From IMG/VR virus record IMGVR_UViG_2778261673_000009: a stretch of 23,750 nucleotides of DNA. One strand, written 5' to 3'. The first letter of the stretch is position 1. Each line of letters opens with the position of its first letter. The position numbers were made by a program, and so were the translations under genes. Of this stretch, positions 5,607-23,750 are shown one piece after another. The notes beneath the pieces were generated by a model. That model was not told the DNA's origin. It did no database searches and saw only the letters and a list, made by a program, of their open reading frames with translations. Source of the DNA: a virus (Duplodnaviria; Heunggongvirae; Uroviricota; Caudoviricetes).

Positions 5607-5694
5607 AATTTTTATAGTGAAATACAAATCGTTTTTTCTTATTCATTCCCGGCGAATTAATAAAAACAAACAGTAATAAACAGCACAAAAAGCC

Positions 5695-5820: not shown

Positions 5821-5895
5821 AATATAAAAAAACAAACAGTAAGCCGGTTTTTCCTGCGACCTTTTCCTGGCTTGCCGGTCTGAGGATGAGTCTCC

Positions 5896-5913
5896 TGTGT
5901 CAGGGCTGGCACA
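5896..5913 (+). promoter_or_regulatory. TGT-N12-ACA dyad, Psid-like late promoter activator site
   Basis: TGTGTCAGGGCTGGCACA, centred about 80 bp upstream of the sid ATG. Confidence 0.45.
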
Positions 5914-5985
5914 TCTGCAATGCGTCGTGTTGTTGTCCGGTGTACGTCACAATTTTCTCAACCTGAAGTGACGAGGAGCCGGAAA

Positions 5986-7217: not shown

Positions 7218-7290
7218 GGGCTGCCGGTTAACCCCGGCCGTCGCCGCACACCGTATTTTTATTCTTCAGCATGATGAGAAAGAGATAACG

Positions 7291-7863: not shown

Positions 7864-7898
7864 AACTCCCCGAAAATCCGCCCGTTTTTACTGAAAAA

Positions 7899-7940
7899 AG
7901 CCATGCATCGATAAGGTGCATGGCTTTGCATGCGTTTTCC
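7899..7940 (+). terminator. Terminator-like hairpin after psu
   Basis: Perfect 9-bp stem AGCCATGCA / TGCATGGCT (7899-7907 and 7917-7925) with a 9-nt loop, followed by TTGCATGCGTTTTCC. The T tract is imperfect. Confidence 0.45.
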
Positions 7941-8027
7941 TGCCTCATTTTCTGCAAACCGCGCCATTCCCGGCGCGGTCTGAGCGCGTCAGTACAACTG
8001 CATTAAAACCGCCCCGCAAAGCGGGCG

Positions 8028-8046
8028 GGCGTGGCGGGGGGAGCAT
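8028..8046. other. cos-like cohesive-end site
   Basis: GGCGTGGCGGGGGGAGCAT matches the P2/P4 19-nt cohesive end (GGCGAGGCGGGGAAAGCAC, recalled from memory) at 15/19 positions. It lies about 165 bp past psu, as in P4, next to a GC-rich inverted repeat (CCGCCCCGC/GCGGGCGG). Confidence 0.55.
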
Positions 8047-8129
8047 TGCGCGCTAAGGCTGATATTATAATTTTCTTTAATTCTATTTGGTATTTTGGCT
8101 TTATTCGTCAGAAGGAACTTTTAGAAATA

Positions 8130-8157
8130 GACCACTACAATGGATTGTAGCGGTCTG
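8130..8157 (-). terminator. Inverted-repeat hairpin downstream of the cargo operon
   Basis: AGACCACTACAAT-GG-ATTGTAGCGGTCT (12/13-bp stem), 9 nt after the partner gene stop. The following minus-strand tract ATTTCTAAAAG is only weakly U-rich. Confidence 0.3.
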
Positions 8158-8165
8158 CATGATAT

Positions 8166-8906
8166 CTAGCGTTGCATTTCAGTTACTATGAAATTTTCTT
8201 CTGTAATAGAATTCATTATCTCAAAGTACAATTCTTCAGGTTGAATAAACGCCAACTCTTTGCAAAGGTTGACAATGGTATCACTATAAGTGATACCCAT
8301 CCGAGGATTGAAAAGCTCAAATCTCTTGATGTTTCTTTTGTTTTTTGAGTAAAAGTTTAAAGTGAAATATATTAGCACCTGTCTAAGATCGTAAACACTA
8401 AACTTCCTATCTCCTGATTTTATTTCCACAAGAACATTTGAATAATAAATATCGCCATATGAATTATTTATTACTCCGCATCCATCGAATTGTGGAGACA
8501 CTTCAATTTGGTTTTCCATTCCATATCGAGACAAAATGTTTCTTGCTATTTCCCTTATGGCATTGTACTCAACCATGCTTAAGGGTAGCTTGAAGTTAGA
8601 ACCGTAAGCGAACCGCTGTAGATATTCTTTTGTTTTTTCAAAAACAACCTGAAAATCAGCATTATGGAAGATATCATGTGCTGAAAGAATATTTCTGTCT
8701 AACGAATCATTCTGTATTGCCCTATATAAATTAAATGCGCACTCATTGACAAAGACGTTATTTGACCTATTAGCGCAGTCATCTAGAGGAGGATAAACGT
8801 CCTCGATGAGACTGCCGTTAATGATGCGTATGAAATTATTAGCATTTGGAAGCAATTGATTCCAAAATGAAGTGAATTTTCGAGAAAACGTTAATTCAGA
8901 TATCAT
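8166..8906 (-). CDS. Hypothetical 246-aa protein, partner of the reverse-transcriptase gene; possible PD-(D/E)xK-type nuclease
   Basis: AT-rich ORF whose ATG overlaps the RT stop (ATGA). It contains GDIYYSNVLVEIKSG, that is D-x9-E-x-K. The nuclease reading is motif-level inference only. Confidence 0.6.
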   Translation of the reverse strand: MISELTFSRKFTSFWNQLLPNANNFIRIINGSLIEDVYPPLDDCANRSNNVFVNECAFNLYRAIQNDSLDRNILSAHDIFHNADFQVVFEKTKEYLQRFAYGSNFKLPLSMVEYNAIREIARNILSRYGMENQIEVSPQFDGCGVINNSYGDIYYSNVLVEIKSGDRKFSVYDLRQVLIYFTLNFYSKNKRNIKRFELFNPRMGITYSDTIVNLCKELAFIQPEELYFEIMNSITEENFIVTEMQR

Positions 8907-10531
8907 AGCGCATCCTCAAGATTTCTTGCGGTATGCCTTTTACTTGCCCAATCCCTGTAAATCACCTCTACAAAGTTGAATGTTTTCTTATTATGCTCTC
9001 TCCAGTGCCGTCCTTCATCACCTAAGATGTAACTGGAAACGATCAATAGTCTTCTCTGCAACGGATGCATTGCAGAGAAATTTTTTTTGATATCAGAAAG
9101 CCATGCGTAAGAATTAATTTTTGCCATTGACTGTGTAACTATGTTCTTGACTAAGATGCTTTCTGGATTGTTATTGTATATTTCACTAAGGATTAGGGTG
9201 GATTTTTCTGAATTTTCTTTTGAGAGCATTCGGGCTACATAGGCTAAGTTGAGCTCAGTACTCAAAATATATGAATCTTGTTTAATTAGTGCAGTTATTT
9301 TATCAAGAATAATATCTTTGGTTTCTGTGCTTAATTTTTGCCAGTTGGAGTTAGCTACTTGAATTATAGTTGTAAATATTGGATATAACTCATGCAAGTT
9401 ATTAAACATTACTTTGAAAGCACTACTTATTATTTCATCTGATGTTGCTGAGAATGCCTTTATCAAATGCTTGCTAAAAGATTGGTTAATTTTTGATTTT
9501 TGTAACTCACTACTCAGCATAGCTAACAAGTCAAAATCTTTTAAAGATTCCTTTATCTCTTCATATTCCTCTATCGCATTTGCTGAGTAAGGATCGAATC
9601 TTATAGGAAGACTCATAAATTTAGCCTTCATAGGAGATTCTTCATCTTCATCATTACCATGCAACTTAGCTTTAGTTACTGAAAGGAACTCTTCTTTAGT
9701 AACAATATTGGTTTTTTGTTTCTGTAAAGTTAGCCCTTCATTTTCCATCAGTTTTTTACTAAGCAAAGTTAAAATCTTATGAGCATCCTCTCTAGAGTTA
9801 CAAAAAATAACAAAGTCGTCGACATAACGCTTATAGTTGATTCTATTCATAGACAATAATTTATCAATAGAATCTAGAGCTAGTTCTGCTAATATTCTAG
9901 AGGCAGGACATCCAACTGGTACTCCATATGATTTTGTTTCACTAAATGTCTGTAGTAATTTCTTGATTTTCCCAGAGTAATCTTTATTGGGGTCTACTCT
10001 ATCTAACGCATTTTCTAAACGGTGGTGATAAATACGCGGATAGAAATCTGCTATATCGCATGTAAGTACATACTTTATTTCATCGTTAGAACATTCAGAG
10101 ATACTGTCTTCTTGATATTTTCTCCAAGAGATCTCTTTATCAAAAAGAGAACCATCAGCAAGGTTTGGTTTAAAGCGATATGAATAAACCTGCGTTTTAG
10201 TAGATCTATTCCTTTCAATATCATCAGCGATTTTTAAAACTAACCCAAGAAAAAAAGCATTCCAGAATGGATCAATTTGGGTCGCCCACCTGTAACCATA
10301 ATAACCAATACTTGAAAAGCTATTAATTATGTTTGGTGGAATCTCGATCCTTTTATTTTCAAAGTCATTAAATGTTTGCATTAATGCAGTTTTTACTTTC
10401 TCCTTATCATCTTCAAATAACCGACTTTCAAATGGGTAAGGGAAAATATCTGTATCGCCGTGCTTTATAATATTTTCCAATGCAAGCTCAAAGCAATTTT
10501 CTAGTTTACTACTATCAAACTCGTTACTCAT
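8903..10531 (-). CDS. Reverse-transcriptase-domain protein with a long alpha-helical C-terminal extension (Abi/DRT-like architecture)
   Basis: 542 aa with RT motifs read directly: CDIADFYPRIYHHRL (motif A-like), YGVPVGCPASRILAELAL (motif B-like) and YKRYVDDFVIF (YxDD catalytic motif, encoded near 9811-9822). About 250 C-terminal residues lie beyond the RT core. Strongly AT-rich relative to its neighbours. Confidence 0.85.
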   Translation of the reverse strand: MSNEFDSSKLENCFELALENIIKHGDTDIFPYPFESRLFEDDKEKVKTALMQTFNDFENKRIEIPPNIINSFSSIGYYGYRWATQIDPFWNAFFLGLVLKIADDIERNRSTKTQVYSYRFKPNLADGSLFDKEISWRKYQEDSISECSNDEIKYVLTCDIADFYPRIYHHRLENALDRVDPNKDYSGKIKKLLQTFSETKSYGVPVGCPASRILAELALDSIDKLLSMNRINYKRYVDDFVIFCNSREDAHKILTLLSKKLMENEGLTLQKQKTNIVTKEEFLSVTKAKLHGNDEDEESPMKAKFMSLPIRFDPYSANAIEEYEEIKESLKDFDLLAMLSSELQKSKINQSFSKHLIKAFSATSDEIISSAFKVMFNNLHELYPIFTTIIQVANSNWQKLSTETKDIILDKITALIKQDSYILSTELNLAYVARMLSKENSEKSTLILSEIYNNNPESILVKNIVTQSMAKINSYAWLSDIKKNFSAMHPLQRRLLIVSSYILGDEGRHWREHNKKTFNFVEVIYRDWASKRHTARNLEDAL

Positions 10532-11708
10532 TCACATTCTCCTTAATAAAAATATAATCTGAATACCACTGCATCATATCACGGCGTTTATCAATATATT
10601 GAGCATGATTATACGTACCTCTAATATTATTCTTATCTATATGAGCAAGCTGTATTTCTATCCAAGCCGAATCATATCCTTTTTCGTGGAGGATAGTAGA
10701 TAAGGAATGTCGAAATCCATGACCAGTAAGTTTTCCACCATAACCAATACGCTTGATAACTTGGTTAATACTCGCCTCACTCATAGGCTTGTTCGGATCG
10801 TTCCGCCCCGGAAAAACATAACTATACTTCCCTGTCATCATCTTGAGTTCATTTAGCAAATCTAACGCTTGAGTCGACAAAGGCACAAGGTGTGATCTGC
10901 GCATTTTCATCCTTTCAGCAGGAATTTCCCAAATAGCGTTATCTAAATCAAATTCTGACCATAATGCCGCACGTAATTCGATGGTTCTAACACCTGTAAT
11001 CATGAGCAATTTCGTGGCAATCAGGACAAGCCGACTTCCGGTATATCCGTTTAAGGCGCGAAGAAAATCAGGTATCTCATTAGCCTTTAAGAACGGGAAA
11101 TGATTTGATTGGTGTACATTGAGGGCGCTTGAAAGATCCGCAGCAGGGTTAAACTCAGCCCTTCCAGTAGCAATGGCATAGCGGAAAACTTCTGAGCATC
11201 GCTGCCGAACTTTGCGCATTTTTTCTAATGCACCGCGCTTTTCGATTTTACGCAGCACATTAAGCAGTTCTAGCGGTTTAATCTCTCCCACTGGCCTTGT
11301 TCCCACATAAGGAAAAATGTCGTTCTTAAACGCTTCCATGATGTCTGATGCATATCCCGCCGACCATTTGGTAGACTTCTGTTGATGCCACTCTCTGGCT
11401 ATCTTTTCGAAGGCGTTCTCTGACTCTGTTTGCAGAGCCAGCTTTTGCTCTTTTCGAACCTCACTAGGGTTCTTTCCTTCTGCCACAAGTTTTCGAGCTT
11501 CATCACGACGGGAACGAGCATCAGCAAGAGTGATCGTTGGGTAAACACCAAGCGAGATCATTTTGGGTTTACCGGCATAGCGATAACGAAATCGCCAGCT
11601 TTTACTTCCATTTGGCTCTACAAGTAAAGACAACCCTTGCCCATCCCCAAGTGTATAGGCTTTAGCTTCAGGTTTAGCACGGCGAATCTGCATATCATTT
11701 AGGGGCAT
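10524..11708 (-). CDS. int: P4-family tyrosine integrase
   Basis: 394 aa with a typical P4-type integrase N-terminus (AKPEAKAYTLGDGQGLSLLVEPNGSKSWRFRYRY) and a C-terminal catalytic region (HGFRHSLSTIL...). It is adjacent to the putative att core. The true start may be the second Met, 15 nt downstream. Confidence 0.9.
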   Translation of the reverse strand: MPLNDMQIRRAKPEAKAYTLGDGQGLSLLVEPNGSKSWRFRYRYAGKPKMISLGVYPTITLADARSRRDEARKLVAEGKNPSEVRKEQKLALQTESENAFEKIAREWHQQKSTKWSAGYASDIMEAFKNDIFPYVGTRPVGEIKPLELLNVLRKIEKRGALEKMRKVRQRCSEVFRYAIATGRAEFNPAADLSSALNVHQSNHFPFLKANEIPDFLRALNGYTGSRLVLIATKLLMITGVRTIELRAALWSEFDLDNAIWEIPAERMKMRRSHLVPLSTQALDLLNELKMMTGKYSYVFPGRNDPNKPMSEASINQVIKRIGYGGKLTGHGFRHSLSTILHEKGYDSAWIEIQLAHIDKNNIRGTYNHAQYIDKRRDMMQWYSDYIFIKENVNE

Positions 11709-11872
11709 GTGTATAGAATTCCAAAATCGAACAGGAACATATACATAATCCTATACACATTTAGTACTGGATTCTACTGGAAAGTTATGGACTAATACGA
11801 ACAGTAAAAACAAAAAATCTTTTATAAAACAGTGCGGTTATGGATAAATACGGATGTTTGAAGAAGTGGAGA

Positions 11873-11890
11873 TGGTGCCGATAATAGGAG
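11873..11890. repeat. Putative attachment-site core, junction copy next to int (ATGGTGCCGATAATAGGA)
   Basis: Direct repeat of 546-563, about 165 bp upstream of the int start. The nearby sequence carries TATACACA-type motifs (11712-11760), also seen inside the other end (620-641), as expected for integrase arm sites. Confidence 0.45.
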
Positions 11891-12033
11891 TAAAACACTC
11901 GATTAATCTCGTGTTAATGCCATCACCTACGACTATTACTAATTGATTGAATCTTATAGAAAAATAATCATTTTCTATGCGTCACAATCAATTTTCACAT
12001 TACAAACGCTCCGACACTTTAGCCGGAGATTTT

Positions 12034-13311
12034 ATGAGATACAAGCCTAACCAATACTTAATCTGTGATTCTTACGGTAACTACTATTTAAGGATCACGC
12101 TGCCTGTGTATATGCAGCCCTTTTTTGAAGGAAAAAGGACGTTTGTCAGAAGTCTACACACAAGTAATCTTCGTGTTGCACGTAGAAAGCGTGATCAGAT
12201 TGCAGATGAATACCATTGCTTACGGGAGAGTGTTGCCCCTGTAAACAGCACAATAGAAAACACGCTGGAACTGTTACGCAGTAAGGCTAAATACGCCAAA
12301 ACAGCTACCAGAGTGCAAGATACAGCGTCTTCGTGTCCGTCATTGCTTAAAATTCTTGAAATCTACCTGACAATTAACAGCACGAAGAAGAAGCCAGCCA
12401 CTTTAGCTAAGGCAAGAAAAGCGGTAGAGATGTTTCTCTCCTACCGTAAAAAGCCTGATATTGCATTGCAAGATGTAAGCCGCACCACTGTTACAGGCTG
12501 GATTGAACACATGCAAAAAACTCTTTCACAACAATCAATTGCAAATTATATCAGCCCAATGGCCCAGCTATGGGAGTTAGCTTCATCACGTTACCACGAT
12601 GCGCCAGAAAGGGCGCTCTCCCCCTGGCGAGGGCATAGGCTTGATGTGGCACAAAGTAGAGAGAGCTACGAGGCATTTTCTAACAAAGAGCTATTGCAGG
12701 TGTTGCAAGTATTTTCCGGTAATTCAGCAGAAAACAAAGAAATGACGGCTTTGTGTCTTATCGGTTTATATACAGGTATGCGGATCAATGAGATAGCAAG
12801 TCTCACAATAGACGATGTGAAAGAGATCGAAGGTGTGCTGTGTTTTGAAATCACACAGGGAAAGACGAAAGCAGCGGCACGTGTTGTGCCTGTACATAGC
12901 CTTATCACTCCGTTGGTGTTGTCGCTGCGTGAAAAGCCTCACAATGGCTTTTTGTTCTATCACGCCAGCATTACAGAGCGTGCTGATGGTAAACGTTCCA
13001 CGTGGCATACGCAGAGATTTACAAGAGCTAAACGAAAGGCTTTAGGGGAAAAGGGAACAGAAAGGAAGGTGTTTCATTCTCTGAGACACGGAGTAGCACA
13101 GCTTCTTGATCGAAATCAAATTCCAGAAGACAGGATCGCCCTTCTCCTGGGCCATACACGCGGCAATACAGAAACATTCCGCACATATAGCAAAAATGCA
13201 GCTTCTCCAGTAGAGCTTAAAAAATATATTGAGCTTTTACGCTACCCTGAAATAGAGAAAGGCTTATCAATCAATAAAAAATCAAATTTAAGGCGTAAAA
13301 CAACGCCATAG
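12034..13311 (+). CDS. Tyrosine recombinase / phage-type integrase of a second element
   Basis: Catalytic motifs visible: TGMRINEI, HSLRHGVAQLL and LLGHTRGNTETFRTYS. The track's longest ORF begins at 11977, but the ATG at 12034 has a GGAG Shine-Dalgarno 6 nt upstream and is preferred. Confidence 0.8.
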   Translation: MRYKPNQYLICDSYGNYYLRITLPVYMQPFFEGKRTFVRSLHTSNLRVARRKRDQIADEYHCLRESVAPVNSTIENTLELLRSKAKYAKTATRVQDTASSCPSLLKILEIYLTINSTKKKPATLAKARKAVEMFLSYRKKPDIALQDVSRTTVTGWIEHMQKTLSQQSIANYISPMAQLWELASSRYHDAPERALSPWRGHRLDVAQSRESYEAFSNKELLQVLQVFSGNSAENKEMTALCLIGLYTGMRINEIASLTIDDVKEIEGVLCFEITQGKTKAAARVVPVHSLITPLVLSLREKPHNGFLFYHASITERADGKRSTWHTQRFTRAKRKALGEKGTERKVFHSLRHGVAQLLDRNQIPEDRIALLLGHTRGNTETFRTYSKNAASPVELKKYIELLRYPEIEKGLSINKKSNLRRKTTP

Positions 13312-13392
13312 ACGTAATAAGGAGGCTTCAACATAGATTGGTAGCCTCTTTTATAATTACATCGTTACAGAGCGTTTCATAGGCGTTTAAGG

Positions 13393-14070
13393 CTATTGTT
13401 TAAATACTGGTGTTACAACGTCTTGCCCTGGGCTTTTTTGATTTTTCTGTTCTGTTGTATTTACCTGCATTTTAACCTGTCCCCCTACAGATTTATTTGG
13501 TGCTGTTTTTACAGCAATAGCATTAGTGGTGGCCTTAGAGACAAGACGAATTTGCTCAAAATCAAGAGTAAACAATATGCTTTCGCTTGCTTCTTCTTCG
13601 TAAGACATGCCAACTAACACAACGTTGTCATAATTTTTTAACTCAGTGACAAGTAGGAAAGGTTGGCGACTGTCCATCAACTGATTTAGGTATTCAAGCA
13701 TAAGCATACGTCGATTGCCGTTAATTCCAGCATTCTTAATCATATCAGGATTGAGCTTCAATACGGTTTCAGAGATACGCCCTTGTAATGTGAACTTGTT
13801 ATTCCGTATTTGAACATGATCACTAACTTCTGATCCTGATTCGACAGCATAGCTTGTAACGTCTGCATTTCTGCTAACTCTCGTCGATTCCACGCTATCA
13901 AATGATAATGCCTGGTAGTCATTGTAAGCAGCATTTGCACCACTGCCGAGATTAGAGGTAATGATCGCAAAGCCGTTACCCCCTTTAGTTGTTCTACCGT
14001 TGCTATCGTTGCTTGTGCTGTTGATTTTCGCCTCAGTCGGGCGACCAATGGTTAACGGACCCATTGCCAT
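13393..14070 (-). CDS. Hypothetical 225-aa protein, last gene of the structural-type operon
   Basis: ORF with AAGGA about 9 nt upstream of the ATG, co-directional with the upstream genes. No recognisable motif. Confidence 0.55.
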   Translation of the reverse strand: MAMGPLTIGRPTEAKINSTSNDSNGRTTKGGNGFAIITSNLGSGANAAYNDYQALSFDSVESTRVSRNADVTSYAVESGSEVSDHVQIRNNKFTLQGRISETVLKLNPDMIKNAGINGNRRMLMLEYLNQLMDSRQPFLLVTELKNYDNVVLVGMSYEEEASESILFTLDFEQIRLVSKATTNAIAVKTAPNKSVGGQVKMQVNTTEQKNQKSPGQDVVTPVFKQ

Positions 14071-14117
14071 AATTTGTAATCCTTATTTAAGGGGGCTAAA
14101 CAGCCCCACAGTGATGA

Positions 14118-15959
14118 TTAATAGGTTGACCCGCCTGACATAACACCCAGCGTTAATAGCTTGCTAAACTCAGCGGAGGATGCCTTTGATTTGAAGTCGA
14201 TAAATTCGCTCAATCGTCCGGTGTCTGATTCGATAGTTAGCGGCACTTCTGCATTTACTTGTAATTCTGGATTGAAGTTAATAACAGGTGCAAAGGTGTA
14301 AGAAGGAGCCTTGAAAGCTTGTTGTGCTGCACTCTGTTTCAGATTTGCAATGTTTTGTCCTTCGAGACTGTATTGATTTACAGCCTGCGCCCCACCTACC
14401 GTTTCTTCTGGCATAAACCAGCTTTTAATAGTGTTAACCAGGGAATTGCTGTTATCTGGCTTAGTTGTTCCGGTGCCAGCGCCTTTATATTGATCAGGAG
14501 TGAGATTAGAAAGATTCTGCTTCATTCCTTCGTTAGATAGTGGCGGTGCATCACCTAAATTCTTCTGAATAGCTGCCGTCTTCTCGTCGTTTTTCATCAG
14601 CCAGTTGATTGTTTTCATTACGGCGTTAACCAATCCGCCGATAGCCTCGCCTAATTTGGTAAACATTGGCAGCATTGCAACCATGCTCTTTTTAAACTCT
14701 TCAATCACTTTCGGATCAAGAGATTTCATAAAGCCATCAACAAAGGCGATCCCTTGTGAGTCAGAAAGCCCACTAAGTGCATTATTCAGTTCACGGAATT
14801 TAATAACGCTTTCCTGTTGTGCCTGTGTTACCCAGCGCCCTGATTCTCGTTGTTCTCGTGCTGATTGTTCCACTTCTTTAGCGGAGCGTGTCCAGTATTT
14901 AGAGGTGAGCATCAAATCATCAGCCAGATCTTCCAGACGACTACCGATTTGTGCATCTGAATAGCCTTTAGCTACCATTCCCTGAACTGCTTTACTAACC
15001 AGACCAGCCGGATTATCAGCAAAGTCTTTTAGATCCTTTTTAGTTAGGAATCCTTCATTCATTAAAGTATTGATGCCGCTATCGCCGCCCTTCCATTCGC
15101 CTTTCCCTGTTTTCTTATCGACTACATATTCAGCCTCATCATAGCTTTTGGTTGCACGCTCACGCACATCTTTCATCTGATCGAGATACTTACGTTTACC
15201 TTGATCCCCCATCATTGAATCAACGCCGTTTTTATACGCCCATTGCTCAATATTGTTCATCTGGTTAACGTCTACACCGCCCAGCTTCGCACGGCTATAC
15301 AATTCTCCCAGCGTTTCAGCACTGGCAAAGCTGTTAGTAACAAATTCAGAGGCTTTGCTCATAGCCATATACGTAGCGCCAGCGCCTAAGCCACCCAGCA
15401 TAACAGCCGCAGCACCGCCGCCAATACTCCCGCTACCCTTAACAGGTGCATAGGCTTTAGCGTGAGCGTTACGATTGCCATTAATCTTACGTTGTTGCTG
15501 TTGTAGGCGTTTCATTTGGCTATTCATACGTGCCAGACTAATAGCGCCTCTTTCATATTGGAGGGCAATTTCTCTAGCCTGTGCAATAGCTTTATATTGT
15601 TCCGCTACAGAAAGACGGTGCATTGCACTAATGCTTGATCCAACGTCTAAAAGCTTTAAGTCTGCCTTCTCTTTGCGTGCTGCCAGGGCTTTTTGTTCTC
15701 TTGCAACTACACGTTGAGCGGCTAATTGTGCTTTAGCATTAGCTTTATCAGCCTGTGCTTGCTTTTTAGCAATATCGTCTACGTCTTTTTTTGCTTTAGC
15801 GGTTGATTGTTTATGTGTCTTAACACGCAATTCTATATCTTTCACAGCCGCCATTTGTTTACGAAGTTTTTCTACTTCTGCTTTTGCTTTCTCTAATGAT
15901 GGTCGATCAACCTGGAAGGTGACAACGTTTGATAAGCGGCTGACGGTAAGGTCTAACAT
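14118..15959 (-). CDS. 613-aa protein with N-terminal coiled-coil region and Gly-rich hydrophobic segment (tape-measure-, ejection- or scaffold-like)
   Basis: The N-terminal 150 aa are rich in K/A/E/Q heptad-like sequence, followed by GSGSIGGGAAAVMLGGLGAGATYMAM and then a long polar region. The functional class is inferred from composition only. Confidence 0.65.
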   Translation of the reverse strand: MLDLTVSRLSNVVTFQVDRPSLEKAKAEVEKLRKQMAAVKDIELRVKTHKQSTAKAKKDVDDIAKKQAQADKANAKAQLAAQRVVAREQKALAARKEKADLKLLDVGSSISAMHRLSVAEQYKAIAQAREIALQYERGAISLARMNSQMKRLQQQQRKINGNRNAHAKAYAPVKGSGSIGGGAAAVMLGGLGAGATYMAMSKASEFVTNSFASAETLGELYSRAKLGGVDVNQMNNIEQWAYKNGVDSMMGDQGKRKYLDQMKDVRERATKSYDEAEYVVDKKTGKGEWKGGDSGINTLMNEGFLTKKDLKDFADNPAGLVSKAVQGMVAKGYSDAQIGSRLEDLADDLMLTSKYWTRSAKEVEQSAREQRESGRWVTQAQQESVIKFRELNNALSGLSDSQGIAFVDGFMKSLDPKVIEEFKKSMVAMLPMFTKLGEAIGGLVNAVMKTINWLMKNDEKTAAIQKNLGDAPPLSNEGMKQNLSNLTPDQYKGAGTGTTKPDNSNSLVNTIKSWFMPEETVGGAQAVNQYSLEGQNIANLKQSAAQQAFKAPSYTFAPVINFNPELQVNAEVPLTIESDTGRLSEFIDFKSKASSAEFSKLLTLGVMSGGSTY

Positions 15960-15993
15960 ACTGATTGTTTCCCTGTATTATGATTGTTGTTTG

Positions 15994-16191
15994 TTATTGT
16001 TTTTTAGAACAATAATATTGGATTGCTTCGAAAGTGCTGCACCCGGTCTGAAACACACGCTGCCGCACATTATTTGCATCAATTGAAAGCATTCTGCATA
16101 AGGCACTGACATTGATTATTGAGTCATCGCTAATAGCTGCCAGTTCTTTTACAGATTTAAGAATTAATGCCTGTGAATTTTCTGTGTTCAT
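15994..16191 (-). CDS. Small hypothetical protein (65 aa)
   Basis: ORF with a weak ribosome-binding site between the capsid-like gene and the 613-aa gene. Confidence 0.3.
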   Translation of the reverse strand: MNTENSQALILKSVKELAAISDDSIINVSALCRMLSIDANNVRQRVFQTGCSTFEAIQYYCSKKQ

Positions 16192-16355
16192 TGGTTTTCT
16201 CTCACATATATATTTTTATTTGGATTTGTAGACAGTAGAAAAACAAAAAGGGCAAAGAGATTCGTTACTGTATTTGCGCCTACAGGTTAGTTAATCTCCT
16301 TACCCTTATTGCCCCCCGATTATTTCCAGACGTAGGGGAACGTCTTTAACACTTT

Positions 16356-17384
16356 TTACGCTACTGTGATCTGCACAGAGAAGCCAACACCGTGGTTAAC
16401 CACAAGCGAGCTATTCTCGGTCACTACGTGCACTGCGTCGCCGCGATTCGATTCGAAAGCATAGCTGTAATACTCTTTAGCGCCTTGAGACAGCAGATCG
16501 AAGGAACTGGAAGGCGCGCCATAGATAGCTTGGTAAACACCTCCACCCTTAGCGAATTTAGGCACGGCTACAGCGTCAGCGGTCATATGTGCCAGCAGCA
16601 GCGGATCAGTCACTTTGATCAGATCAATGTTAGTTCCTGGAATGGTGAAAGTAGTTACGCCAGGCAGCAGAGAACGCACATTAAACACCACGTTTGCATC
16701 GTCTACAGGGCTTGCATATTGGAACGCATTGACCATGCCAACGCTGTAACGAATAGCGTTGAATGCCGCAGGTTTACAGAACACAACAACACGCTCAATG
16801 GTTGCAGCCTGGCTTTGTGCCTTAGCAATCATATCCGTATGCATCTGATCAAATTGCTTGAATACGGTCATTGTGTTGGTGCTGGATGCGTCAACGGTTG
16901 CAGTCATTGGAGACACACCGAACAGAGTGCTGTAATCGATCAGAACATCGTCAGTTTTCGGCGTATGTGTCTTGCCAGAGAACAGAGAAGCCGCGAGGAT
17001 GCTTTCTTTAGTGCGCTGGAATGCAACATTGTGTTTAGCGATATATTCCGCATACAGATCCGGCAGTGTTTCTTCAATAGAGCTTCCGGCTTTGCGTTTG
17101 CCTTGCACGTCCTGCGGTTTGATCAGGTCTTCACGCAGGAAGTAAGGGATTTCAATCAGCCATTCTTCCCCGTTCTCACGCTTAGTAACGTTATGCTCAG
17201 AGCTAAAACGGCTTGTAGGATGGTTGAACAGAGATTCATTGCTCTCGATAAGCTGGGAAACAGCCACTTTGTGACTTTCTACAGGCACAGGATCAGTAAA
17301 ATCCAGAGTAGACAGTAGGTAATTGCGTGAGTCGTTTAATTCGAACAGTGGAGCAAGATCAACCACTTCATTTCCGATAATCAT
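16356..17384 (-). CDS. Putative major capsid protein, lambda gpE-like
   Basis: 342 aa, essentially the length of lambda E-family capsid proteins. C-terminus ...GFSVQITVA resembles the E-family C-terminal motif as recalled. Preceded by a 124-aa gene, like the lambda D-E pair. GAAGGA lies 10 nt upstream of the ATG. Confidence 0.5.
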   Translation of the reverse strand: MIIGNEVVDLAPLFELNDSRNYLLSTLDFTDPVPVESHKVAVSQLIESNESLFNHPTSRFSSEHNVTKRENGEEWLIEIPYFLREDLIKPQDVQGKRKAGSSIEETLPDLYAEYIAKHNVAFQRTKESILAASLFSGKTHTPKTDDVLIDYSTLFGVSPMTATVDASSTNTMTVFKQFDQMHTDMIAKAQSQAATIERVVVFCKPAAFNAIRYSVGMVNAFQYASPVDDANVVFNVRSLLPGVTTFTIPGTNIDLIKVTDPLLLAHMTADAVAVPKFAKGGGVYQAIYGAPSSSFDLLSQGAKEYYSYAFESNRGDAVHVVTENSSLVVNHGVGFSVQITVA

Positions 17385-17400
17385 TATTATTTATTCCTTC

Positions 17401-17775
17401 TTAAGATGTGAAAACAGAGTGGAAGCCTTCAAGCTGGAAGCCTTTAGCAGCGAGAGCTGCAATAGCAGCTTCTTTTACAGCGCCTTCGGCATTCAGGGCA
17501 TCAGCTTTGATGCAAACGAGTCCGGCATTAGCACGAAGCACGTTAACTGTTTTATTTGAATCAGCAGTTACGAAGTCAGACACAACGACAAGAACATCAG
17601 CGCCGCTAACATATTTAGCGCCGGATGAATCAATGAGGTCGCCGCACGTTACATCTTGTGCAAGTGCTGCAAATTTTTTGCTTTCTACAGCCGCGTAAGG
17701 GTCGGTTGCATAGCTCACTACGTCAGTGATGCTTTTACGATGTGGGAAAACATCGCTTAATTTTAAAATAGCCAT
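17401..17775 (-). CDS. Putative head-decoration-like protein (124 aa)
   Basis: Small Ala/Val/Gly-rich protein immediately upstream of the capsid-like gene. Strong AAGGA ribosome-binding site. Start overlaps the stop of the upstream gene (TAATG). Function assigned by position and size only. Confidence 0.4.
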   Translation of the reverse strand: MAILKLSDVFPHRKSITDVVSYATDPYAAVESKKFAALAQDVTCGDLIDSSGAKYVSGADVLVVVSDFVTADSNKTVNVLRANAGLVCIKADALNAEGAVKEAAIAALAAKGFQLEGFHSVFTS

Positions 17776-17984
17776 TATTTTTCCTTAGATTGTTTGATTT
17801 GTTGAGCTTTAGCATTAATCAAATCTTGGTGAGATGGTTTATTGCTGTCAGCCTTATAAAGACGTTCACACTGTTTCTTTAATTCTGTAGGAGTGATGCC
17901 AAGCGCGTAGGCTGTAGCATTCAACACATCCTCAGTTAGTGTTAACTTTTCATTGCCATATTTCAGGATAATTTCTTGTTTCAT
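17775..17984 (-). CDS. Small hypothetical protein (69 aa), first gene of the structural-type operon
   Basis: ORF translationally coupled (TAATG) to the 124-aa gene. Weak ribosome-binding site. Confidence 0.45.
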   Translation of the reverse strand: MKQEIILKYGNEKLTLTEDVLNATAYALGITPTELKKQCERLYKADSNKPSHQDLINAKAQQIKQSKEK

Positions 17985-18013
17985 AAAATAACGATTCCGT
18001 TATGTTCCGAGTA

Positions 18014-18062
18014 ATAAAAAGCCCCAGGCTATAAGAGGTTCAATCAACAATAGCAAGGGGCT
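18014..18062 (-). terminator. Terminator-like hairpin preceding the structural-type operon
   Basis: GCCCC(AG)GCTAT...ATAGC(AA)GGGGC stem-loop followed on the minus strand by a T run (plus-strand AAAAA at 18016-18020). It sits between the early-type genes and the capsid-like genes. Confidence 0.3.
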
Positions 18063-18990
18063 TATTTATTTTGTATCGGGCAAAATACATATTGTGATAA
18101 GTCAACTTTGAGGAGGTTTAACGTTATCTCTAAGAATACTTTTATAAATACGCTTAGAGATATGTTAAGGGTGAATAACAGGACCGCAGGAGAAATTGGC
18201 TCTTAGGAGGGGCCAACCCTTTGGAATCTACGATCCTGCTATTCGATGCGGGGGCTAAACCGCTGCCTGTTTTTGCTGTGGATGCAACAAAGTAAGGCTT
18301 TAAGGAATCACTATTCCAATTCTAATCTACTCACAGATCAAATTTTAATAGGATTAACTACACCAACAGTAATCTACCGTTTCAGAAAATCGTTTTTACA
18401 ACCAAAGCTTATAGATCCGCATTCTATAAAACCCGTTTTGCTATCAATATTTCCAAAGTTTATTGCACCATTCTTAGCTAAACTCTCTCTACTTGCGGCT
18501 AACGCTATGCAGATGATAGTTTTTTGACAACAACTTAATAGATTATTCTGTTACTAACTTCCGTCATTAAATAAGAGTTTAATGATGTTAGTAAATAGTT
18601 ATAAAATATAACTATCAGTGTAAGGCTCTTTAATGTTTTCGGACAAAATAAGGAGCTTTAGGATAAGCATAGATGAAAAATAAGAGCGGGAAGGGCAAGG
18701 AGATAACACCTACCCGCTTTTATCAAAATTAAGCACAATGCCTAACAACATTCATCAACACAACGTAGAAACAATCAACAATCAAAGAGGGAGTTATGAT
18801 TATTCTAAAACTTCTTGAGAGATGGAAGGTAATATTTGTTAGAGGTTAATGCCACTCAACCTTTGAGGCTATCACCTTCCATATGCAGGGATTTATGACA
18901 ATAGAAGGATTAACGCCAACTAAAATCTTTTTATCTACCCCTAAAATTATTATATAACAAAATCATTATAAATGCAAATGATTTTCATTA

Positions 18991-19299
18991 TCATTTAGAG
19001 AAAATAGCACTTTTTGCTAAATCATCTACTAATTGCTGAATCTCTTCACTTGCAACCTTTAACGTGGTGGCGATGTCTGTGATGATTTGATTACACTGTT
19101 TTGCATCGTGCTCAGATAGCTTTAAATAGCTCACCAGAGAGATAAAATCGTCAAGGCTTACATTCACCTTCATTAAGCTAATAACGCATTGAGAGAGCGT
19201 GTAATCGCATAAATCTGAATAGGCTTGATTTATTCTTGTTTGTAGTGAGATAGTCAGATCTAAAAGTTGTTCCATTGCATTGCTAATATCTTCTTCCAT
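18991..19299 (-). CDS. Small hypothetical protein (102 aa)
   Basis: ORF whose ATG overlaps the stop of the upstream 67-aa gene (TAATG). Confidence 0.5.
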   Translation of the reverse strand: MEEDISNAMEQLLDLTISLQTRINQAYSDLCDYTLSQCVISLMKVNVSLDDFISLVSYLKLSEHDAKQCNQIITDIATTLKVASEEIQQLVDDLAKSAIFSK

Positions 19300-19502
19300 T
19301 ATGCGTATTCTCCTTGTAATGCATCATTAATCATATTCAATACGATGTTAAAAGGTGTCTTGAGCGTCAGCACTTCATCACGGTAACGATCTAATGCTTC
19401 GTAGTCTTCTGTTTCTTTTGCCAGCCGGATTAACTCAGCATAGTTTTTTGCATCAGACAGGATCATCTGAAATAATTGTGTTTCTTGAATATAGCCAATC
19501 AT
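19299..19502 (-). CDS. Small hypothetical protein (67 aa)
   Basis: ORF with AAGGA 8 nt upstream of the ATG. Confidence 0.45.
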   Translation of the reverse strand: MIGYIQETQLFQMILSDAKNYAELIRLAKETEDYEALDRYRDEVLTLKTPFNIVLNMINDALQGEYA

Positions 19503-19560
19503 TATTTTTCCTTTTTTTGAATATTTTCATTGGGCGCTTATACATACGCCCATCATTTTA

Positions 19561-19944
19561 TTAGTTAGAACGTTTGTTAGAAGCTAATGTATCTTCTAAA
19601 TGAGCCATCAGATCGACTTCCGATGCACCACCTACACAATTATTGAAAGCGTTAAATCCCAAAAAATGATGATAGGAGCTAAACCCTAAAAGCTGCCAAC
19701 GTTTCAGAGTGCCATCAGAAATGATAGTTTGTTTTCTTGTTCTTGGGCGAAAGTAAACGCCTGGCATTGACTGGATTATTTCTAATTCTTCATCACTTAA
19801 TTCAGGGGATTCTGTTTCAAGAATAAAGATTATCTCTTCCCCTGGAATTTCGTTATTGGTATGTGTCGGTGGACGTTGTCTTGTTGAATTGAAATTACTG
19901 TTTTTTTCAATACGTTTTAAGTTGTTCTTCTTCTTTCTTCCCAT
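19561..19944 (-). CDS. Hypothetical protein (127 aa)
   Basis: ORF with GAGGG 5 nt upstream of the ATG. Basic N-terminus (MGRKKKNNLKR). Confidence 0.5.
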   Translation of the reverse strand: MGRKKKNNLKRIEKNSNFNSTRQRPPTHTNNEIPGEEIIFILETESPELSDEELEIIQSMPGVYFRPRTRKQTIISDGTLKRWQLLGFSSYHHFLGFNAFNNCVGGASEVDLMAHLEDTLASNKRSN

Positions 19945-20040
19945 TTTCCCTCTTTTTATGTGGATTATAAAAACTGAATGCCATAGTTACGATGAATATC
20001 GCCATAAATGCATTTGCCATATGTATTGCCCGATCTGTTG

Positions 20041-20310
20041 TTATTGATTGTTTGTGATAAACAATTCAAAATCTTTGTTTAATTTCAAAAGACGAAATGT
20101 AGTGCTGTTAATCCCTTCATAATCCAGCACACCGAACGATGTAAAATGATTTAACCAATGATTTACGTGTTGTGCGCTGTAGCCGCCTAAACTACAAAAG
20201 CTAACCACTGTCGGCGGTGAGAACTCTATTTCCAAAATAGCTTTTAAAATGTTGTATCCGCTTTCAGTTATTTCAATAGTTTTGTTTCCTGTAGTGATGT
20301 TATAAGTCAT
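20041..20310 (-). CDS. Hypothetical protein (89 aa)
   Basis: ORF with AAGGAG 6 nt upstream of the ATG. Confidence 0.5.
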   Translation of the reverse strand: MTYNITTGNKTIEITESGYNILKAILEIEFSPPTVVSFCSLGGYSAQHVNHWLNHFTSFGVLDYEGINSTTFRLLKLNKDFELFITNNQ

Positions 20311-20319
20311 TTATTCTCC

Positions 20320-20889
20320 TTAGAATGGTATTGAATCGTATATTTCACTTTTTTCTCTTAGAGATATTATCAGATCGTGAAAAGCCTGTTTCTCAAGATA
20401 GATATTCTTTGAATCTAATGCACGTTTTACAAAATCTTCTGTTTCTTCGTGCGGTGGTTTCTTCTTATCAAGGGAAAGAAGCCAAGTAAAAATTTCGGGC
20501 CGCTCAGGGAACTCTGATTCCTGTGTTTCTTCTTCAACGATGATTTCGGAAACATTCAATATTTCATTAGATTCGTCTTCTTTCTCAGAAGGATCAGGTA
20601 GTGATGATTCTCCTTTTGGAATATCAAGCACTCGATAAAGGTTAGAGCTTCCTGGTCGTGCATCTTTTATAATTAATCCCATTTCGAGCAATTTCTTAAC
20701 CCTTTCTTCTGCTGCTCTTGGTGTTATGCCAAAAACATCGCCTATCTTAGCGTAAGAGGGAAATGCACGATCAAACCCTCTCAAATAGCAGTAAAGGTTT
20801 TTAGCACTATCTGTAAATTTATGCCCGTTTACTTGGCTTATTTTTAGAATCCACATAGGAACTTTTACAAATTGTTCTTCATTAATCAT
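20320..20889 (-). CDS. Putative replication initiator / replisome-organiser with N-terminal winged-helix domain
   Basis: Likely start is the ATG at 20889 (AAGGAG 7 nt upstream; the track ORF begins at a GTG at 20913). N-terminal pattern FVKVPMWILK...SAKNLYCYLRGF...FPSYAKIGDVFGITPRAAEERVKKLLEMGLI is typical of phage and island replication-initiator DNA-binding domains. Acidic C-terminal half. Confidence 0.55.
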   Translation of the reverse strand: MINEEQFVKVPMWILKISQVNGHKFTDSAKNLYCYLRGFDRAFPSYAKIGDVFGITPRAAEERVKKLLEMGLIIKDARPGSSNLYRVLDIPKGESSLPDPSEKEDESNEILNVSEIIVEEETQESEFPERPEIFTWLLSLDKKKPPHEETEDFVKRALDSKNIYLEKQAFHDLIISLREKSEIYDSIPF

Positions 20890-20942
20890 TAAAAATCTCC
20901 TTGATGTAATCACGCTCTACGGCGCTACTATGGTGATAAAAA

Positions 20943-21113
20943 TCACTTGCTTTTGTTTGAGAGTGTTTCAGCCTCTCTTTTCAACATATCAAGAATGTAA
21001 TCTGTAACAGTGATACGTTTACTTCTGGCTTCTTTAAACAACACCTGAAATACTTCATCAGGAATATGAAAGCAAGTGCGTGGTTGTCTTTTCTTTTCTG
21101 TAGTTTCGCTCAT
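20943..21113 (-). CDS. Small 56-aa protein, possible ribbon-helix-helix regulator
   Basis: Not in the ORF track (under 60 aa). ATG at 21113 with GGAG 6-7 nt upstream. Translation MSETTEKKRQPRTCFHIPDEVFQVLFKEARSKRITVTDYILDMLKRE has a strand-helix-helix look. Confidence 0.4.
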   Translation of the reverse strand: MSETTEKKRQPRTCFHIPDEVFQVLFKEARSKRITVTDYILDMLKREAETLSNKSK

Positions 21114-21134
21114 AGTTTTCTCCTTCTCCTGTTA

Positions 21135-21317
21135 TTATTCTTTCTCTGCTTCTGCCTTACGCAGTTCATCAATAATTTTTAGTGCATCGTCAAAACATTT
21201 TTCACGCTCTGGATAACCACAGCGTCGCGCTGTGTTCCTGTTCATCCTTACTTTAAAACGATTAATCTCACCACGTTTCCAGGCTTCAACTACATCTTGA
21301 GAAGTGAAATACTTCAC
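21135..21317 (-). CDS. Small 60-aa protein, first gene of the leftward early-type operon (GTG start)
   Basis: Start codon is GTG at 21317, with AGGAGG 7 nt upstream. Basic small protein. Confidence 0.5.
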   Translation of the reverse strand: MKYFTSQDVVEAWKRGEINRFKVRMNRNTARRCGYPEREKCFDDALKIIDELRKAEAEKE

Positions 21318-21486
21318 TAATTAACCTCCTATTCTATTTGGTTAAAAGAAAAAACACCTTGCAAGCCTTGTTGGGCTTCAAAGTGCGGTGCATTGGTTTA
21401 ATTACTTAGAGGATAAGAATGTTTTCTGTCCCTAATATTACTTTACCACGACTAAAAGCTTTTGTCAACCCCTGGCCATAAAAATA

Positions 21487-21511
21487 TTGATCATTTTCAG
21501 TGTGTTATAAT
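21487..21511 (+). promoter_or_regulatory. Candidate extended -10 promoter (TGTTATAAT) reading rightward into the ORF-poor region
   Basis: TGT-TATAAT at 21503-21511 with TTGATC 13 nt upstream. The upstream hexamer is too close for a standard -35, so the call rests on the extended -10 alone. Confidence 0.3.
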
Positions 21512-21618
21512 TTTTCTTAGCAATTCGTGCTCTTACGAGTGTTCCTATTCTTCCTTATTCTCTAAAACGCTCTAAAACGCGTTCTAACGAGGTATTTGAT
21601 AAAAACAATACATTCCCT

Positions 21619-21656
21619 TATGTAGAGGTTGTTTAGCTCGCCAGAGGCTTATTTAA
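21619..21656. repeat. Repeated element, copy 1 (GTTTAGCTCGCC-N3-GGCTT-ATTTAAG-GGG)
   Basis: GTTTAGCTCGCCAGAGGCTTATTTAAGGGG recurs at 21797-21832. The tail AAGGGGCTTATTT..TTGTAT also recurs at 18052-18076. Confidence 0.5.
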
Positions 21657-21796
21657 GGGGCTTATTTTGTATTTGTTAGGTATATGAAAAGGAGATGATA
21701 GATAAAATCTAATTTCAGACATCTTATAAAATACCTGTAAAGCTCTCAGAAGCTCTGTAACGAGCTAATCTATTACCGCTAAGTGTTTCCCTGCCT

Positions 21797-21832
21797 TATA
21801 TACGTTTAGCTCGCCTACGGCTTGATTTAAGC
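21797..21832. repeat. Repeated element, copy 2
   Basis: GTTTAGCTCGCCTACGGCTTGATTTAAGCGG, a direct repeat of 21619-21656 with few mismatches. Confidence 0.5.
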
Positions 21833-22301
21833 GGTAGAATCTTATTTAACCTTCAACTACTAAAACCATTCTTTCTTTTTTGTTTGTTGTTGGTTGTTGT
21901 CTGTGTCTATGTGCTAACATCGCTAACGCGTAGCACACAAGGTTATTGCACAAGTAAATTTCAATCGTTAGATGGTAGTTAGTTAATTATCGTTCTGCGC
22001 ACAGCGCAAGACTATTTAGCCTTACGCAAGCCGTAGGCTATTTGCACATAGTAGATTACATATTCGTTGTGAGCGGCATTAGCGAACATAGATCTACTAA
22101 CTAACATCAACAAACAAAAACTATGTGTTATGACAAGCAGTCTAACGACTAACACTCTAACTTGTGCAAGGTTCTGGCGAATGCCAATAGATTAAGGGAT
22201 AGTCAAGGACTCCCCTAACGGGTACCCCTATAATTATTCTTTAAAGATAAAAGAATTTATAAAAGATAATTTAATTGTAGTTTGATAGTTGATCTAATAG
22301 G

Positions 22302-22435
22302 TAACAAAATTCTGTAGGGGTGGCTAACAGTTTTCTGTGGGGGTGTATAACATAATTCTGTTAGGGTTGGGGTAACAGTTTTCTGTTAGGGTGCATATTT
22401 CTTTAAAAGTTAAGGATAACAGAATTCTGTGGGGG
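22302..22435. repeat. Iteron array: five 19-bp direct repeats TAACA-N3-TTCTGT-N-GGG(G), each with an internal ACAG-N4-CTGT dyad
   Basis: Units start at 22302, 22325, 22348, 22373 and 22417, giving spacings of 23, 23, 25 and 44 bp. The unit at 22417 contains the perfect palindrome ACAGAATTCTGT. Putative origin of the second element. Confidence 0.6.
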
Positions 22436-23262
22436 TAGTTCACAGTGACCTACCGTTACATCCATTTATCACATAACATCTGTGCAATGATCTTCTAAAA
22501 GTGTTTCTTGCTACCAAAATTAAACATCTAAAACAGGCTTAAATTCAAGATTAATTGATGATTAATCCTTATGTAATTCCATACTAAAAATTCAATGAAA
22601 AGTAGCTTAAAAGTGCAATTCTTACTTTCTTCACTTTTACATCACTTTCGCAAAGCCTTGTGTAATGCGGCTTACAGAGCACTATCAGAAATTGTTGATT
22701 AAAAATCAATCTATTATTTGTCGAACAAGTTTCTTTCACGTGTTGAAAATTTATGTTTAAATTTGCTTTCAATCTTTAATGTGCAATCACTATCAACATA
22801 AAAATAAAAACCTTCTATTATATTTCATAGCATACAAAAGTCAATAGAAGCCCTCTCGTGCTCCTACGTAAAAAATCCACCACTTTTCCCCTGATACATC
22901 AACTCAAGGCGTTCTATGTGTTCCTTAGTGCATATTACGATTATTATGTTAAATGGATTTTGGCCTATATTTTGACCTGCACCCGCATAAACACTGGTTT
23001 CATCGCTTACAGCCCTTGTGAGACGTGGTGCTGTTTCTAGCATCTGATCCGACATAAAACCGATCATTCTCGTGTTTAGTGAAAGTTTAGTGAGAGACAT
23101 TACAGAAAGGCTTTCTGTGTAATGATTTAATAGGTAAAAACGATGTTGATTACGCAAGAAAATTCCTTGCTGATATTTGGGGATTCTGGATTTTCCAGAT
23201 CGGGGGGCGCTAAAAATCGCGTTAAGCACCTCTCGCAATCTAGCCATAAGGGAAGGGATATA

Positions 23263-23305
23263 GGTATTTAGATGTATTTATAGCTATTTATGGCTATTTA
23301 TTTTT
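23263..23305. repeat. Four tandem copies of a roughly 10-bp AT-rich unit (nnTATTTAnn)
   Basis: GTATTTAGA TGTATTTATA GCTATTTATG GCTATTTATT, at helical-repeat spacing. A nearby pair CCCTTAAATCCCC / GCCTTAAATACCCC lies at about 23393-23430. Confidence 0.4.
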
Positions 23306-23596
23306 TATTTACCTTTATTAAAAAATAACCTTATAAATCAATAAGATACAGAGCTATCTGTTTATATTTTAATCAATTAAATCAAGTTTAATACCCTTAA
23401 ATCCCCTGAAAATAGCCTTAAATACCCCAATAATTAATTTTAAGGTTTTCCGTGTTCTCTTCTGCATTATGAAAATGCAAAATAAGGCACAAAACAAGCT
23501 CACAGACGCATTAAACACACATCACCTATGCATCCCTATACCAAGCAATGAAAACAGCGTTAGAATGCGTCCTGTTGCGTTCTGGAGATTTTCAGA

Positions 23597-23750
23597 AATC
23601 CTCTCTAAGCCATTTCAACTCACTAAGGAGTTTTCTTTCTTCGTTCTCTCGTTGCTTTCGCTCTAGCCAGGCTTTTCCTTCTGGCGTAGACAGGAACTTA
23701 CGAGCGTGAATCTTGCGGTTATTCCGTTTGATAGCTGCAATGTTTTTCAT
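23597..23750 (-). CDS. Small ORF starting at or beyond the window edge (possibly partial)
   Basis: The minus-strand ATG sits at the last three bases of the window and reads MKNIAAIKRNNRKIHARKFLSTPEGKAWLERKQ... to a stop near 23597. Any upstream signal is outside the window. Confidence 0.25.

Follow-up and report, generated by a model that had tools for sequence, protein, structure and literature searches.

The 23,750 nucleotides analysed here (IMG/VR record IMGVR_UViG_2778261673_000009; hereafter the window) are Escherichia coli DNA at the tRNA-Thr gene thrW, and between positions 16356 and 17984 they carry a decoration and capsid gene pair that is probably the head module of an integrative satellite of ∼12.5 kb. 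Its likely helpers, judged by comparison of sequences, are virulent myoviruses of the Stephanstirmvirinae (phAPEC8, phi92, Mt1B1_P17 and their relatives). The proteins of the element would then form a satellite-specific capsid.

The 342-aa product of the pair was identified by profile search as a major capsid protein. It matches Pfam Phage_cap_E (PF03864) with an E-value of 3.4e-18 and 66.2 bits (cut-off 22.9) across model positions 14-329 of 329, and also PHROG 29 (‘major head protein’); PF03864 is present in 48/48 full or partial relatives that have a Pfam record. Compared with solved capsid proteins, the family profile matches phi92 gp124 (21uy_N, 2e-18), PhiTE (9cul_G, 2e-10) and Sf14 (9c2d_A, 6e-7). 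No phage capsid protein exceeds ∼25% identity to it, the nearest being those of phi92/phAPEC8-type virulent myoviruses, and the alignment with phAPEC8 gp114 runs from end to end. The initial annotation had called the pair lambda D/E-like, which holds at the level of family and fold, although the nearest relatives of the capsid protein are of the phi92/phAPEC8 type rather than lambda itself.

The cement (decoration) gene lies directly upstream of the capsid gene. Its 124-aa product has no match of its own in Pfam, PHROGs or NCBIfam, and an AlphaFold model built with close relatives only was unusable (predicted local distance difference test score, pLDDT, 45). Once distant relatives from an exhaustive hidden Markov model (HMM) search were included, a usable model was obtained, with which structure search revealed a gpD-like fold. 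The HMM of the cement family reaches P0126 and P0128 (E ∼1e-5), both of which match PHROG 2680 (‘head decoration’), to which phAPEC8 gp115 also belongs. The hhalign match of the cement family to gp115 alone is weak (E 0.03), and BLASTP of the 124-aa protein against gp115, and of the 65-aa protein p65 against gp105, gave no match. Cement proteins of the gpD type bind the assembled capsid lattice. The decoration and capsid pair first proposed from the open reading frames (ORFs) is thus real, as is its proposed translational link to the 69-aa gene upstream (p69), whose stop codon overlaps the start of the cement gene as TAATG. A GAAGGA ribosome-binding site precedes the capsid gene.

These genes belong to a single minus-strand operon (17984-13393) that encodes, in order, p69, the cement protein, the capsid protein, p65, a tape measure protein and a tail tube initiator. 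The tube initiator is 54% identical to phAPEC8 gp103 (BLASTP 4e-71), carries Pfam Dit_like (1.7e-27) and has as matches in the PDB phi92 gp135 (2e-54), the PhiTE ‘tube initiator’ and Pam3 gp17. The tape measure protein (613 aa) is 24-30% identical to its phAPEC8/phi92-type homologues (659-662 aa) with both termini kept, and matches PHROG 16051 at 5.5e-32 and, in the PDB, phi92 gp134 at 9e-22. It is 46-49 residues shorter than the phage versions, and at 1.6 Å per tape-measure residue (PMC11838301) the resulting tail would be ∼7 nm shorter. Its homologues comprise 134 phage records with an identical organism breakdown whether the E. coli or the Klebsiella element is the query. The initial annotation had proposed a capsid-remodelling strategy distinct from the Sid scaffold; the element does have shell genes of its own and no Sid, but the operon runs on into the tape measure and tube initiator genes, and therefore a changed tail, besides a changed head, is probable.

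A Buttiauxella element (L017 13233-13907) has a tube initiator 71.5% identical to phAPEC8 gp103, nearer than the E. coli copy, while the gene is missing from several elements (Klebsiella, Serratia, Kluyvera, Scandinavium and Citrobacter). Given this patchy presence and differing identity to the phage protein, it resembles a repeatedly acquired accessory of the tail module. No match for p69, p65 or the four small ORFs at 18991-20310 was found in Pfam, PHROGs, NCBIfam or PADLOC. With p69 as the query, the search for homologues yielded just two proteins, both near-identical, of which the one with a named source is from E. coli; that p69 serves as an assembly factor would be a guess. A helix-turn-helix-like pattern is visible in p65, whose gene is placed between those of the capsid and the tape measure in every genus examined; the protein may act as a regulator, in packaging specificity or as a chaperone.

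The initial annotation had also suggested that the element supplies shell and decoration proteins without the packaging machinery, and the gene content agrees with this. From 11872 to the end of the window, the only ORFs above 250 aa are those of the integrase, the tape measure and the capsid protein, together with one antisense to the capsid gene, and therefore neither a portal nor a large terminase can fit. Searches against protein families likewise gave no match to packaging genes, and no homologue of the phAPEC8 TerL/terminase, portal, protease, scaffold, sheath or tube was found in the elements from seven genera. The antisense ORF (308 aa, 16392-17318, plus strand) is absent from RefSeq annotation in the records examined and is most likely spurious.

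All phage links of the element lead to virulent Stephanstirmvirinae. For the capsid protein, the tape measure and the tube initiator alike, the best-matching phage proteins belong to Phapecoctavirus or Justusliebigvirus, and phages of the phAPEC8 and phi92 kind are virulent myoviruses of ∼150 kb. Gene order in phAPEC8 runs protease, scaffold, decoration, capsid and, later, chaperone, gp105, tape measure, Dit-like; two sub-blocks of this order are retained in the element. A 46-bp stretch of the window (23199-23244) is 93-97% identical to phi92 318-363, mid-way through which the annotated 343-bp left terminal repeat of phi92 ends. This motif is kept in >50 phages of the subfamily and is also found in E. 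coli elements with differing capsid cassettes and differing replicons, making it a candidate packaging signal. Furthermore, window positions 20576-20930, inside the replication initiator gene, are 99.2% identical over 355 bp to phage Mt1B1_P17, so recent recombination has occurred between element and phage. A local tblastn of all element ORFs against the examined parts of phage genomes found no additional common genes.

The replicon offers a further connection. The likely start of the initiator is the ATG at 20889, giving a protein of 189 aa as annotated in relatives. Differences between the window and strain OkiPb01707 are confined to two places, the N-terminal winged-helix domain of the initiator and the iterons, which read TAACAnnnTTCTGTnGGGGT (five copies) in the window and TCGGAAnTCATTTCCTAGGT (four copies) in OkiPb01707. 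This joint swap supports the pairing of initiator and origin and shows that they are exchanged as a module. The co-replaced segments correspond to window 20612-21115 and 22286-22432 against L001 14705-15209 and 16408-16552, in elements that are otherwise 96% identical; a third type of initiator, with 63% identity, is found in strain SCPM-O-B-8794 (L013).

Both of the OkiPb01707 and window initiator types recur in a single phage protein. In the 328-aa gp053 of Mt1B1_P17 (NC_052662.1 20722-21708), residues 1-105 are 99% identical to the window-type initiator domain and residues 119-210 are 88% identical to the OkiPb01707-type domain, followed at residues 230-326 by a T5orf172/GIY-YIG-type endonuclease domain (PHROG 681 at 2e-18). 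The C-terminal part falls just under the Pfam threshold for MUG113/T5orf172, and by tblastn it matches T5-like ‘homing endonuclease’ genes. In the Vibrio phage ICP1, the nuclease Odn is a T5orf172 protein whose N-terminus mimics the RepA of the satellites known as PLEs (elements that are like phage-inducible chromosomal islands), and which cuts the PLE origin at the iterons (PMC8263062). The domain design of gp053 looks like that of a dual-specificity analogue of Odn, apparently aimed at the element. Genes related to gp053 are present in phages BI-EHEC and muut.

The element is a maintained, compact family under purifying selection rather than debris, as judged from its comparative genomics. 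Cement, capsid, p65, tape measure and integrase genes form a syntenic core across Escherichia, Klebsiella, Serratia, Buttiauxella, Kluyvera, Scandinavium and Citrobacter, and ratios of nonsynonymous to synonymous substitution rates (dN/dS) among E. coli variants are 0.04-0.14 (capsid), 0.13-0.26 (tape measure), 0.05-0.12 (tube initiator) and 0.04-0.18 (integrase). Within E. coli, the segment 16361-17968 (p69, cement and capsid) is an exchangeable cassette that is always swapped as a unit. In strains CFSAN029787 and L3_CS7_E2980 the flanks are ∼96% identical to the window while these three genes are replaced by very distant homologues: the alternative capsid has 20% collinear identity to that of the window (E 6e-4) with a weak PHROG 29 match, and the alternative cement protein is related to that of the window with an hhalign probability of 97%. 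Between the window and L010 (5952-7562) or L011, the backbones are 96% identical, but the p69, cement and capsid alleles that they enclose only 20-32%. For the L010-type capsid allele there was no tblastn match in the phage collection and no Pfam match.

Complete E. coli genomes carry the window-type cassette in 46 cases and the alternative cassette in 229 (each out of 5,426), and a third type, 74-80% identical, is also present among them. Relatives were also found in Klebsiella, Citrobacter, Enterobacter and Serratia. Those in IMG/VR are proviral predictions from genomes, not element-sized virome contigs, and are uninformative on encapsidation. One contig, JAEWTL010000083.1 (L014), is labelled ‘MAG: Bacillota bacterium’ and carries the element at 98% identity to E. 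coli; the label is probably a binning error.

We therefore propose the following cycle. Infection by a helper would trigger excision of the element and its replication from the iteron origin, together with expression of the operon from p69 to the tube initiator. The element's own capsid and cement proteins would form a satellite shell, probably small to suit a 12.5-kb genome, around the helper portal, and the helper terminase would fill this shell, possibly guided by the 46-bp copy of the terminal-repeat boundary. The head would then join a chimeric tail, with tape measure and tube initiator from the satellite and the remainder from the phage, as in the Vibrio PLEs. Helper resources would be diverted and the phage yield probably lowered; such a cost is proposed as the reason why some phages have a nuclease that incorporates the origin-binding domains of the satellite.

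Several points weigh against this proposal. All of the evidence is comparative, the element being known here from sequence alone, and with a capsid protein only ∼25% identical to that of the putative helper, its fit to the helper portal, scaffold and protease is an assumption. No scaffold or size determinant was recognised among the element's genes, and p69 and p65 are without an assigned role. A search for the 46-bp motif in the elements of Klebsiella, Serratia, Buttiauxella, Kluyvera, Scandinavium and Citrobacter gave no match (nor did one for the left end of the phage repeat in the elements from outside E. coli), and the motif is missing from the E. coli variant L009, where the equivalent of window 22749-23597 is swapped for a segment with a resolvase-family gene. 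The motif may therefore be non-essential or a regulatory site, and the terminal-repeat boundary itself is known from one annotated genome, that of phi92. No iteron copies were found in the phage DNA examined, which covered phage genomes in part only, and gp053 could be a homing endonuclease of the ordinary kind, with a DNA-binding domain that it has in common with the element through recombination. Finally, a 497-aa protein at the replication-gene position of the Serratia element (L003 6144-7637) matches only PHROG 2467, a family of unknown function, has no match in the PDB and is the sole large protein of the element family without an assignment.

Other readings of the same genes have to be weighed against a transferring satellite. 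The most credible of them, though improbable, is a non-transferring defence island that uses its capsid, cement, tape measure and tube initiator proteins as dominant-negative mimics to poison the assembly of phAPEC8-type heads and tails, the element itself staying unpackaged. Structural homologues at 24-54% identity are distant enough to act as incompatible subunits, the seeming counter-measure gp053 implies harm to the phage, and interference with tail assembly is a known defence theme (PMC11364771). A poison subunit, however, needs no matching cement protein exchanged with it as a cassette, and since a dedicated cement protein co-varies with each capsid allele, real shells are favoured over poison subunits. 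Moreover, with its integrase and attachment (att) sites, an iteron replicon that undergoes diversifying exchange and its copy of the terminal-repeat boundary, the element has the features of one that is mobile, amplifying and packaged, and PADLOC found no known defence model among its genes. Known satellites both defend and transfer, so defence is more a subset of the satellite model than an alternative to it. That same co-variation of cement and capsid speaks against a slightly less credible reading, in which the element is a satellite whose capsid protein makes no shell alone and instead co-assembles with the helper lattice, or caps or alters it, in a head-size role like that of Sid or TcaP. 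Some dependence on the helper head pathway is unavoidable, given that no scaffold, protease or portal is encoded, and the end-to-end alignment with gp114 would suit co-assembly. Mixed hexamers seem unlikely at 25% identity, though, and capsid alleles only 20% identical in near-identical E. coli backbones are hard to fit to one helper lattice.

The readings as a cf-PICI (below) and as a prophage remnant were rejected on gene content and conservation. It is very unlikely that the element is a reduced capsid-forming phage-inducible chromosomal island (cf-PICI), or a satellite of a temperate helper outside the phage collection, with its likeness to Stephanstirmvirinae incidental. The L010-type capsid allele, for which no phage relative was detected, would fit such a reading. 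So would the likeness of the element to cf-PICIs, which encode an HK97-fold capsid protein of their own instead of remodelling the helper capsid, and of which some have tape measure genes (PMC12987554). The element has shell and cement genes only and lacks the portal, prohead protease and terminase that define cf-PICIs. In work attributed to Alqurainy et al. from 2023, cf-PICIs are said to encode a whole head and packaging set (portal, protease, terminase subunits and connectors) and to take only tails. As for a temperate helper, homology of the tail core, the terminal-repeat motif and DNA-level exchange with Mt1B1_P17 all lead to one phage subfamily. Least credible is a decayed prophage that once had a full morphogenesis module and whose remaining genes are relics. 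Its position in a tRNA integration hot spot beside another mobile element would be in keeping with such an origin, as would the RefSeq annotation, in which most of its genes are hypothetical (the only names given by the sources to element proteins being ‘hypothetical’, ‘major capsid protein’, ‘phage baseplate protein’ and ‘flotillin family protein’). Yet the same compact gene set and order recur in seven genera, the structural genes are all intact and under purifying selection, and their nearest homologues in the phage collection, at only 24-54% identity, belong to virulent 130-150-kb phages rather than temperate ones. No complete prophage with the cassette was seen among the bacterial loci and proviral contigs examined.

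As a probable satellite of virulent myoviruses, the element most resembles the Vibrio PLEs, in its likely helper type, in the arms race over the replicon and in the chimeric tail core; this likeness is drawn from kinds of gene and domain design, not from PLE protein sequence. Both are small integrative elements tied to a virulent myovirus, a link that is made here by sequence comparison. Both pair an initiator with an iteron origin, with the DNA-binding domain and iterons swapping as a module (PMC8263062), and in both cases the phage has a chimeric T5orf172 nuclease bearing the DNA-binding domain found in the satellite initiator. In the chimeric tails of PLEs, which have been shown experimentally, PLE-encoded versions with 20-41% identity take the place of the ICP1 tape measure, its chaperone and the baseplate hub (PMC11838301, PMC12987554). 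The element likewise encodes a tape measure and a baseplate-core protein, and satellite versions in the two systems have 20-54% identity to those of the helper. In PLEs the baseplate-core protein is the hub BhuB, whereas the element has a tube initiator and no recognised tail assembly chaperone. The heads differ too: a PLE takes the ICP1 coat protein and shrinks the head with the external scaffold TcaP (PMC10945586), while the element brings capsid and cement proteins with no recognised scaffold. The element also differs in having a tyrosine integrase at a tRNA gene and Enterobacterales hosts.

With P4-like satellites the element has in common its size (∼11-12.5 kb), tRNA-linked integration and helper-supplied virion parts. 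In P4, the external scaffold Sid makes small heads from the P2 capsid protein; the element, in contrast, carries its own capsid and cement proteins and tail core. Homologues of Sid, Psu, Delta and the alpha primase occur in the window only in the adjoining P4-like element (1029-11708), with none at 11872-23750. The pairs of lambda (gpD/gpE), phi92, PhiTE and Sf14 are set inside a full head module with terminase, portal, protease and scaffold, whereas that of the element stands alone.

Taken together as one joint claim, the features above would describe a novel enterobacterial satellite family on ∼150-kb Stephanstirmvirinae, the first PLE-like system in E. coli, with an intermediate hijacking strategy and an Odn-like arms race of dual specificity, and we regard this claim as evenly balanced between right and wrong. 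The intermediate strategy, which shares that standing, would have the satellite give the capsid, cement, tape measure and tube initiator, and the helper give the portal, maturation, packaging and outer tail. No published description of the element was found in the literature searched, coverage of which was incomplete, so an earlier account is possible. Detailed knowledge of satellites that exploit strictly virulent phages comes so far from one system, PLE/ICP1 in Vibrio. If the claim is true, a common counterpart in E. coli would be a tractable second model, with a new division of labour (satellite shell, helper portal and motor) that bears on capsid size and on the compatibility of portal and shell. 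It may also explain why strains differ in how susceptible they are to phages of the phAPEC8/phi92 type, which have a use in therapy cocktails, and gp053 would be a second, independent anti-satellite nuclease built by a phage from the satellite's own initiator.

The features of the element are listed in Table 1. It stands in tandem with a P4-like satellite, the two having a common att core at thrW, and their junction at 11872 is the left boundary of the capsid-encoding element. Homology to strains that have only this element begins exactly there, and in such strains it sits alone at thrW. From 11872 the element extends ∼12.5 kb to thrW, which lies ∼600 bp past the end of the window. The iterons fall in a stretch of ∼2.3 kb that has no RefSeq-annotated gene in related strains.

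Table 1: Positions of the features of the capsid-encoding element at thrW, with the outer att copy of its P4-like neighbour.
Feature	Position	Strand	Basis or remark
Degenerate att copy	534-553		Outer boundary of P4-like element
att core TGGTGCCGATAATAGGAGT	11872..11891	n/a	Copy of thrW 3' end (blastn-short of thrW region against window)
Tyrosine integrase (DUF6538, SAM-like and catalytic domains)	11977..13311	+	Pfam; PHROG 1
Dit-like tail tube initiator	13393..14070	-	Pfam Dit_like, BLASTP, PDB
Tape measure protein, 613 aa	14118..15959	-	PHROG 16051, PDB
p65	15994..16191	-	Alignment and synteny; no family match
Major capsid protein, 342 aa	16356..17384	-	Phage_cap_E; HK97 fold by homology
gpD-type decoration (cement) protein, 124 aa	17401..17775	-	
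p69, 69 aa	17775..17984	-	Translationally coupled to decoration gene
Untranslated leader of structural operon, ∼1 kb	17985..18990	-	
Four small ORFs (102, 67, 127 and 89 aa)	18991..20310	-	127-aa ORF kept across genera
Predicted replication initiator	20320..20913	-	O-like winged-helix N-terminal domain and conserved C-terminal domain
Two small conserved ORFs (56 and 60 aa)	20943..21317	-	Also in Klebsiella, Buttiauxella, Kluyvera and Citrobacter elements
Five iterons TAACAnnnTTCTGTnGGGGT, candidate replication origin	22302..22446	+	
46-bp motif, candidate packaging signal or mimic of terminase recognition site	23199..23244	+	

At the 5' end of the leader of the structural operon there are sigma-70-like sites (18994-18949), and 35 nt before the p69 start a stable hairpin (∼18070-18013, z-score -3.2) resembles a terminator and has a U run. 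Compared with an element bearing the alternative cassette, the leader is 86% conserved, lower than the adjoining genes. Speculatively, the hairpin hints at read-through control of the structural operon, and the leader as a whole could be a read-through switch or the source of a regulatory RNA. An Rfam scan found no known RNA in the element, the only hits being the P4 C4 and isrK RNAs of the adjoining satellite.

That P4-like satellite (554-11871) is complete, with alpha primase, orf151, derepression protein, C4 and isrK RNAs, AlpA, Delta, Psu and integrase; the gene at its Sid position belongs to a PHROG labelled ‘Psu-like’. Its hot spot holds a DRT8 defence pair, consisting of a reverse transcriptase (8903-10531) and a PD-(D/E)xK nuclease (8166-8906).

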